This document shows positions 1,528-1,560 of a stretch of DNA of 26,754 bases, one piece after another. Position numbers and translations under genes: made by a program. The number at the start of each line of letters is the position of its first letter. Position 1 is the first letter of the stretch. The notes beneath the pieces are model-generated. The model was not told the origin of the DNA, made no database searches, and worked only from the letters and a program-made list of their open reading frames with translations. Origin of the DNA: Pseudomonadota bacterium (GTDB lineage: Bacteria > Myxococcota_A > Polyangia > Haliangiales > Haliangiaceae); assembly GCA_026387715.1 (NCBI GenBank), contig JAPLLF010001100.1, positions 1 through 26,754 of the forward strand, written 5' to 3'.

Positions 1528-1560
1528 TCGGTGAGGTGATGTGACGCGGGCGTGACGCCC
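1528..1560 (-). promoter_or_regulatory. Candidate Pho box: GCGTCAC units with 11-bp phasing upstream of phoB
   Basis: The minus strand reads ggGCGTCACgc / ccGCGTCACat / caCCTCACcga. On the plus strand GTGAC sits at 1541-1545 and 1552-1556, and GTGAG sits at 1531-1535. The array lies 18-47 nt upstream of the phoB ATG, in the 70-nt gap after the EAL gene. Confidence 0.45.

Follow-up and report, generated by a model that had tools for sequence, protein, structure and literature searches.

The GTCAC array immediately upstream of phoB is best read, from sequence and comparison, as the Pho box of the phoB-phoR operon. It would form part of a PhoB-activated promoter that lacks a −35 hexamer and from which phoBR would be transcribed as a leaderless mRNA, a reading to which we give a probability of roughly 0.82. 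The window, meaning the whole 26,754-bp stretch of DNA analyzed here, has a G+C content of 71%. The minus strand of positions 1560..1528, on which phoB is encoded, reads gggcGTCACgcccgcGTCACatcacCTCACcga, matching the transcription of this segment given by the sequence-only reading. The features concerned are the following.

2..799, minus strand: phoR-like histidine kinase gene, N-terminal part (PAS and HisKA domains), running off the window
803..1507, minus strand: phoB, encoding a response regulator of the OmpR/PhoB family (Pfam Response_reg and Trans_reg_C)
1505..1507, minus strand: probable ATG start of phoB, separated by 6 nt from the −10 hexamer, with transcription predicted to begin at A1507
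1514..1522, minus strand: predicted extended −10 element, made up of TG (1522-1521), c and TAACTG (1519-1514)
1531..1535, minus strand: repeat 3, CTCAC, degenerate and promoter-proximal, in the slot of the conserved proximal GTCAC
1541..1545, minus strand: predicted Pho-box direct repeat 2, GTCAC, at about −38 to −34, the invariant upstream half-site of the conserved pair
1552..1556, minus strand: predicted Pho-box direct repeat 1, GTCAC, at about −49 to −45 if +1 is 1507
1563..1567, minus strand: distal repeat slot, GGCAC, degenerate, 11 bp upstream of repeat 1
1584..2432, minus strand: stand-alone EAL-domain gene (Pfam EAL, 149.9 bits)
2502..2564, plus strand: companion pstS promoter, with GTCAC at 2502, 2513 and 2535 and a degenerate slot at 2524

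Repeats 1 and 2 are spaced exactly 11 bp apart, and a repeat search returns the 7-mer GTGACGC twice on the plus strand at a spacing of 11. The third unit, CTCAC at 1535-1531, lies 10 bp from the GTCAC at 1545-1541 and 11 nt upstream of the −10 hexamer; alignment with MAFFT places a 1-nt gap in the spacer between repeats 2 and 3 relative to 14 relatives. An 11-bp phasing of three units, as originally described, therefore holds for repeats 1 and 2 but not for the third unit. All three units are present, as had been counted, but the addition of GGCAC at 1567-1563 brings the total to four phased slots. The array combines 11-bp repeats, a core on the coding strand and a location at the −35 position in front of Pho-regulon genes. 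On this sequence evidence it is a genuine conserved array of binding sites, a predicted Pho box, and the phoB promoter is predicted to comprise four phased slots of which at least two adjacent ones are always perfect.

The genes around the array fit a Pho locus. The best NCBIfam model for the phoB product is TIGR02154 (PhoB), at 244.5 bits and below the 296.2 cut-off; the protein shares 43% identity with E. coli PhoB, RegX3 is the best of its relatives with a solved structure, and an exact-sequence look-up of the 236-aa form returned no record. Its recognition helix reads RTVDTHVKRLR, compared with RTVDVHIRRLR in E. coli, and the wing Arg is conserved; we take these helix and wing residues to be the DNA contacts, after the PhoB-DNA structure reported by Blanco et al. 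2002. The kinase gene downstream of phoB, truncated by the end of the window, has PnpS and PhoR as its best NCBIfam matches, and the context strongly supports the assignment of a putative cognate PhoB-PhoR pair. Directly upstream of the array is the EAL gene, whose stop codon lies 16 nt from the distal repeat slot. No Pho box facing the EAL gene was seen in 2433-2500. Beyond it, pstS, pstC and pstB are encoded on the plus strand from 2562, each scoring above its NCBIfam equivalog cut-off. Elsewhere in the window, an 883-aa open reading frame (16022-18673, minus strand) matches the Major Vault Protein shoulder (Pfam PF11978, 84.5 bits) and Vault_3 (PF17795), and by sequence it looks like a bacterial homolog of the Major Vault Protein. 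Its neighbors encode a 784-aa protein without a Pfam match (13647-16001) and a leucine-rich-repeat (LRR) protein (18708-20441).

Positional statistics set the array apart from background. The pattern GTCAC-N6-GTCAC has two matches on both strands of the 26,754-bp window against 0.15 expected from dinucleotide shuffles, and both fall in short intergenic spacers, one before phoB and one before pstS, in each case on the strand that encodes the gene. The sequence-only reading had claimed the same core and orientation before pstS and had judged chance an improbable source of the two sites, and both claims are borne out. Simple arithmetic from the shuffle expectation gives a chance of about 2e-4 for a match on the correct strand of the 76-nt phoB spacer. 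GTCAC by itself is not enriched in the window (63 observed, 80 expected). In 316 kb of unrelated control loci (metagenomic loci of EAL homologs), there was one match, and this was to a relaxed pattern only. By comparison, all 24 strict matches in 116 kb of loci from 15 relatives, i.e., the 14 aligned Kofleriaceae/Haliangiales relatives and the more distant L014, lie immediately 5′ of a start codon, and the genes behind them are phoB, pstS, the Porin_O_P gene and one unknown gene. A position weight matrix (PWM) trained on the relatives' sites only returned the pstS site (15.4 bits) and the phoB site (13.4 bits) as its top two matches in the window; the null maximum per window is 11.5 ± 2.8 bits and overlaps the value for the phoB site. 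The information in the motif is low, and its significance rests on position and conservation, not on the PWM score.

The closest relatives of the window are metagenome-assembled genomes (MAGs) of Kofleriaceae (Myxococcota), whose PhoB proteins are 79-91% identical to that of the window. We took the phoB 5′ regions of 14 Kofleriaceae/Haliangiales relatives and aligned them with the window, giving 15 sequences. An exact GTCAC-N6-GTCAC precedes phoB in 13 of the 14 relatives, the other (L005) having GTCAT, and in all 14 the order is the same: the GTCAC pair, 10-11 nt, TGnTA, 6-8 nt and the phoB ATG. In the repeat 2 slot, alignment columns G31, T32, C33 and A34 are invariant across all 15 sequences, as are C43, A44 and C45 in the repeat 3 slot. 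Invariant or near-invariant columns are confined to GTCA(C), (T)CAC, TG, TA and ATG, and everything else varies. The second GTCAC of the window aligns with the invariant upstream half-site and its CTCAC with the proximal half-site, which is normally perfect. The repeat 1 slot is likewise a perfect GTCAC in two relatives, L009 and L012, reads GTCGC in L013, and is degenerate in most relatives. The slot occupied by GGCAC reads GTTAC in L001-L003 and L010, where the window's cGGCACCGGGGCG aligns with cGTTACCGGGGCG of L001.

What lies upstream of phoB varies among the relatives, and an EAL gene is found there only in the window. In L003, L004 and L010, phoB is divergent from another gene, and elsewhere unrelated genes end at this point. 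The array, the −10 element and the ATG travel with phoB and not with its neighbor, which argues for an autonomous promoter. In L003, the divergent gene (2577-3854, minus strand) is Porin_O_P, a phosphate-selective porin. It has a GTCAC-N6-GTCAC of its own in its own orientation (L003 at about 3895, minus strand), so that the two Pho promoters would stand back to back within a single spacer. A further GTCAC-N6-GTCAC in L005 (2374-2405, plus strand) precedes a 510-aa open reading frame without a Pfam match, which may be an uncharacterized member of the Pho regulon. In L014, a more distant member of the Haliangiales, GTCAC-N6-GCCAC occurs at about 3900-4003, followed by a leader of about 25-37 nt and GAGG 5 nt before the phoB ATG; from its sequence, this is a predicted leadered variant of the phoB promoter.

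Downstream of the repeats, TGnTA is present in 15 of 15 orthologous phoB promoters, 6-8 nt from the ATG and at a fixed distance from the proximal repeat, with 10-11 nt between the proximal core and TAnnnn in every case. Most of the phoB −10 hexamers lack the canonical final T (e.g., TAACTG and TAAGGC). CATGCT was also considered as a −10 hexamer and was rejected, its key A not being conserved in the relatives (catgct, cgtgct, tgtgct). The predicted hexamer contains an in-frame stop codon, TAA at 1519-1517, and the phoB reading frame cannot therefore begin further upstream. The start in the list of open reading frames, ATG 1513 (1511-1513), abuts the hexamer, whereas the N termini of homologs (MLVLVIEDE or MSGLVLVIE) align to ATG 1507. 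The true start is probably ATG 1507, which would give a protein of 234 aa. The distance of 18 nt between array and start codon put forward in the sequence-only reading depends on ATG 1513 and gives way here, both the homologs' N termini and the promoter geometry favoring 1507. Measured from ATG 1507, the last core (1531) is 23 nt upstream, with the −10-like element in between.

This arrangement has a direct bearing on the 5′ end of the mRNA. Leaderless initiation requires an AUG start codon, and the start is ATG in 15 of 15 phoB and 7 of 7 pstS orthologs, despite the 71% G+C content of the window. No Shine-Dalgarno (SD) sequence was found within 15 nt of either ATG 1507 or ATG 1513. The region thus pairs an AUG start with a −10 element 6-8 nt before the start codon and no SD sequence in the window. 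With only 6 nt between the hexamer and ATG 1507, and with the in-frame stop, transcription likely starts at the A of the ATG. We consider it reasonably likely, on this spacing, that the phoB mRNA is leaderless. The very short or absent leader suggested earlier is upheld to the extent that the distance from −10 to ATG leaves no room for one, with the transcription start a predicted position. Similar spacings occur at two non-Pho genes in the window, each at the first start codon of its reading frame: TACGAT gagcgc ATG at 22101 (minus strand) and TACCCT ctgggt ATG at 13615 (minus strand). Leaderless transcripts may be common in this genome, the enrichment over chance being only a rough figure.

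The pstS promoter repeats the same plan on the opposite strand. Its last GTCAC is followed by 10 nt, TAGGGT (2550-2555), 6 nt and ATG 2562. Six pstS orthologs likewise have TA(C/G)(G/C)GT and exactly 6 nt before the ATG, so that the spacing is kept in 7 of 7 promoters with the window included, and the pstS promoters carry no SD sequence. From this layout, the pstSCAB mRNA is also predicted to be leaderless.

We propose that under phosphate limitation, phosphorylated PhoB would bind the 11-bp-phased GTCAC units head to tail, occupying the high-affinity pair at 1556-1541 and the weaker units on either side of it, 1567-1563 and 1535-1531. Together they would span roughly −60 to −24 of a promoter without a −35 hexamer, from where PhoB could recruit sigma-70 RNA polymerase to the extended −10 element TGcTAACTG (1522-1514). 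No −35/−10 sigma-70 pair was detected in 1300-2800, which fits an activator-dependent promoter. Transcription would begin at the A of ATG 1507 and yield a leaderless phoBR mRNA, and the resulting positive autoregulation of phoBR would be coordinated with pstSCAB, whose promoter has an identical build and lies 1 kb away. That a PhoB-dependent autoregulatory promoter element precedes phoB is very likely from the sequence comparisons. PhoB autoregulation had been suggested from the two arrays at the outset, and it gains support from the twin site at pstS, the fixed geometry in 14 relatives and a layout like that of E. coli, with binding by PhoB itself predicted from these features.

In an alternative hypothesis, most phoB expression would come from transcription continuing out of the EAL gene or from a more distant upstream promoter. 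The mRNA would then carry a leader in which the conserved TGCTAAGG/GAGG bases act as the ribosome-binding site and not as a −10 element, and the array would be at most an internal modulator. We consider this unlikely. No intrinsic terminator was found between the EAL gene and phoB, which leaves the path for read-through clear, but no relative has the EAL gene upstream of phoB, and the promoter architecture persists in them nonetheless, making transcription solely from upstream of the EAL gene improbable. In the same vein, a search of metagenomes for homologs of the EAL protein gave 80 loci (53-81% identity), and phoB or pstS was adjacent in none of them. The case for a leader is more substantial in the relatives: SD-like AAGG (L001-L006, L010 and L028) or GAGGTG (L007 and L008) occurs 5-8 nt before the ATG, overlapping the −10 element, and L014 clearly has a leader of about 25-37 nt with GAGG. 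Yet in the window nothing SD-like is found within 15 nt of ATG 1507 or ATG 1513. An SD-like sequence is missing from L009 and L011-L013 as well, with TGnTA at an unchanged distance, and the invariant part of this segment is TG-n-TA and not the purine run. At pstS, too, the spacing from TAnnnT to ATG is an invariant 6 nt with no SD sequence. An autonomous, PhoB-activated promoter accounts better for these patterns, with transcription out of the EAL gene perhaps contributing to phoB expression as well.

Slightly less probable again is that the array serves as an operator for a different regulator of the OmpR family, or as a PhoB repressor site at which negative autoregulation occludes a constitutive promoter. 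Direct repeats with a period of about 11 bp are common to the whole OmpR/PhoB family, and the regulator scores below the PhoB equivalog cut-off, with RegX3 as its best solved relative. PhoB can moreover both activate and repress, and next to the Pho box of E. coli phoB lies a site for auto-repression (PMC6194859; PMC10294691). On the other side, the adjacent kinase is PhoR-like. The array also occupies the −35 position, and the analysis detected neither a −35 hexamer nor any other sigma-70 promoter that it could occlude. These readings further have to contend with the presence of the array before pstS and, in relatives, before the phosphate-selective porin gene, members of the canonical Pho regulon, and with a geometry equal to that of the E. 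coli activation site. These points favor a Pho box from which PhoB activates its own operon.

Finally, it is highly improbable that the repeats arose by chance in a GC-rich spacer or form an RNA hairpin or terminator of the EAL gene (GGGCG-TCA-CGCCC): although the PWM score taken by itself does not leave the null range, GGGCGTCACGCCC could form a 5-bp stem and a 7-nt inverted repeat, CTCGGTG/CACCGAG (1527-1533 / 1573-1579), brackets the array, chance is excluded by the positional and comparative statistics, the folding energy is ordinary (z = −0.47, with 65 of 200 shuffles folding as well), there is no T-tract terminator, the best Rfam match (E = 0.71) reaches 20.5 bits where the gathering score is 48, and among relatives the GTCAC cores are invariant but the stem-forming flanks are not conserved. 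The inverted repeat itself was judged a chance occurrence for a 100-nt GC-rich stretch and is unused in the predicted fold.

A positive PhoB autoregulation circuit is textbook logic, here predicted for an uncultured myxobacterial lineage. In this respect, all that is known of M. xanthus is that it has several Pho two-component systems (PMC4415409), and leaderless transcription has been proposed for the myxobacterial pexR (PMC12754779). The literature searched yielded no report defining a Pho box for myxobacteria. The present analysis offers such a definition (GTCAC with an 11-bp period), together with a promoter grammar, for an uncultured myxobacterial family, with which Pho-regulon members could be predicted in Kofleriaceae MAGs. 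The start codon of phoB is also likely to move from 1513 to 1507. Of mild interest is that phoB and pstS appear to share a leaderless architecture across the family. This adds a case outside the actinobacteria of leaderless mRNAs apparently being made from both a two-component operon and the transporter that is its main target.

The same grammar reaches beyond the family, with GACAC-N6-GTCAC, 10 nt, TAnnnn, 6 nt and ATG in the Polyangiales loci L018 and L021. We speculate, with a little less than even confidence, that in Kofleriaceae/Haliangiales and some Polyangiales, phoBR, pstSCAB and the phosphate porin gene are all expressed as leaderless mRNAs from PhoB-activated promoters without −35 hexamers, and that the EAL gene was inserted in one lineage, possibly coupling phosphate to c-di-GMP. 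Other bacteria are known to connect their Pho regulon with c-di-GMP (PMC3333781). The EAL gene, of the c-di-GMP phosphodiesterase type, stands between the two Pho promoters, that of pstS and that of phoB, in the lineage of the window only. If the Pho regulon is leaderless family-wide, then the starvation response of these bacteria would depend on SD-independent translation.

Desulfovibrio vulgaris, formerly counted as "deltaproteobacterial," now belongs to a different phylum from the organism of the window. The box of its PhoB (DVU1083), defined by DAP-chip, is (c/t)GT(n)AC and lies upstream of pstSCA, and its PhoB targets include EAL/HD phosphodiesterase genes (PMC3333781). The repeat core is similar in the two systems, and EAL genes feature in both, as PhoB targets there and as a gene between two Pho promoters here. 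In contrast, the D. vulgaris box is described as a 6-bp repeat and a spacer of 4 bp, and the study reported nothing of a leaderless architecture (PMC3333781).

Pho boxes in general consist of at least two direct repeat units of 11 nt with seven conserved positions, CTGTCAT in E. coli and GTTCACC in Streptomyces (PMC4415409). According to that review, the E. coli phoBR Pho box goes back to Makino et al. 1986/1988, and the PhoB-DNA structure to Blanco et al. 2002. On its coding strand, the E. coli phoB promoter (NC_000913.3) reads TTTTCATaaatCTGTCAT, then 10 nt, then CATAAT. The layout of the window is similar: repeats on the coding strand with an 11-bp period and the core GTCA(C/T) (TGTCAT in E. 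coli), a proximal core 10-11 nt upstream of the −10 element (10 nt in E. coli) that stands in for a −35 hexamer, and a location before the regulator's own operon, as for positive autoregulation. Unlike in E. coli, the spacers are G+C-rich where those of E. coli are A/T-rich, there are up to four phased slots as opposed to two, and the proximal unit is degenerate and spaced 10 bp. In addition, E. coli has a leader of about 40 nt with an SD sequence, whereas none is predicted here, and the regulators are only 43% identical.

More than two phased units, perfect distally and weaker near the promoter, are also a feature of E. coli pstS and of Vibrio cholerae phoBR, the latter described as a hierarchical multi-box Pho promoter (Diniz et al. 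2011, as cited in PMC6194859). By analogy, the combination of perfect distal and weak proximal units suggests hierarchical or cooperative filling of the array. The number and quality of units differ among these promoters, and those of the window are predicted from sequence.

A precedent for the leaderless architecture is the phoRP operon of Streptomyces, which is preceded by PHO boxes and for which mapping placed the transcription start on the A of the ATG, in the arrangement TAACCT, 6 nt, ATG (PMC3160421, Table 1; PMC6283541). The two differ in the core of the repeat, GTTCACC there (PMC4415409) and GTCAC here, in gene order (phoR-phoP there and phoB-phoR here), and in the regulator, actinobacterial PhoP representing a different branch of the family; the start was mapped experimentally in Streptomyces and is predicted in the window. 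Both are high-GC organisms with 11-nt direct repeat units upstream of a two-component operon, and from the −10 hexamer to the start codon they are almost the same, with TAACCT, 6 nt and ATG in Streptomyces and TAACTG, 6 nt and ATG in the window.
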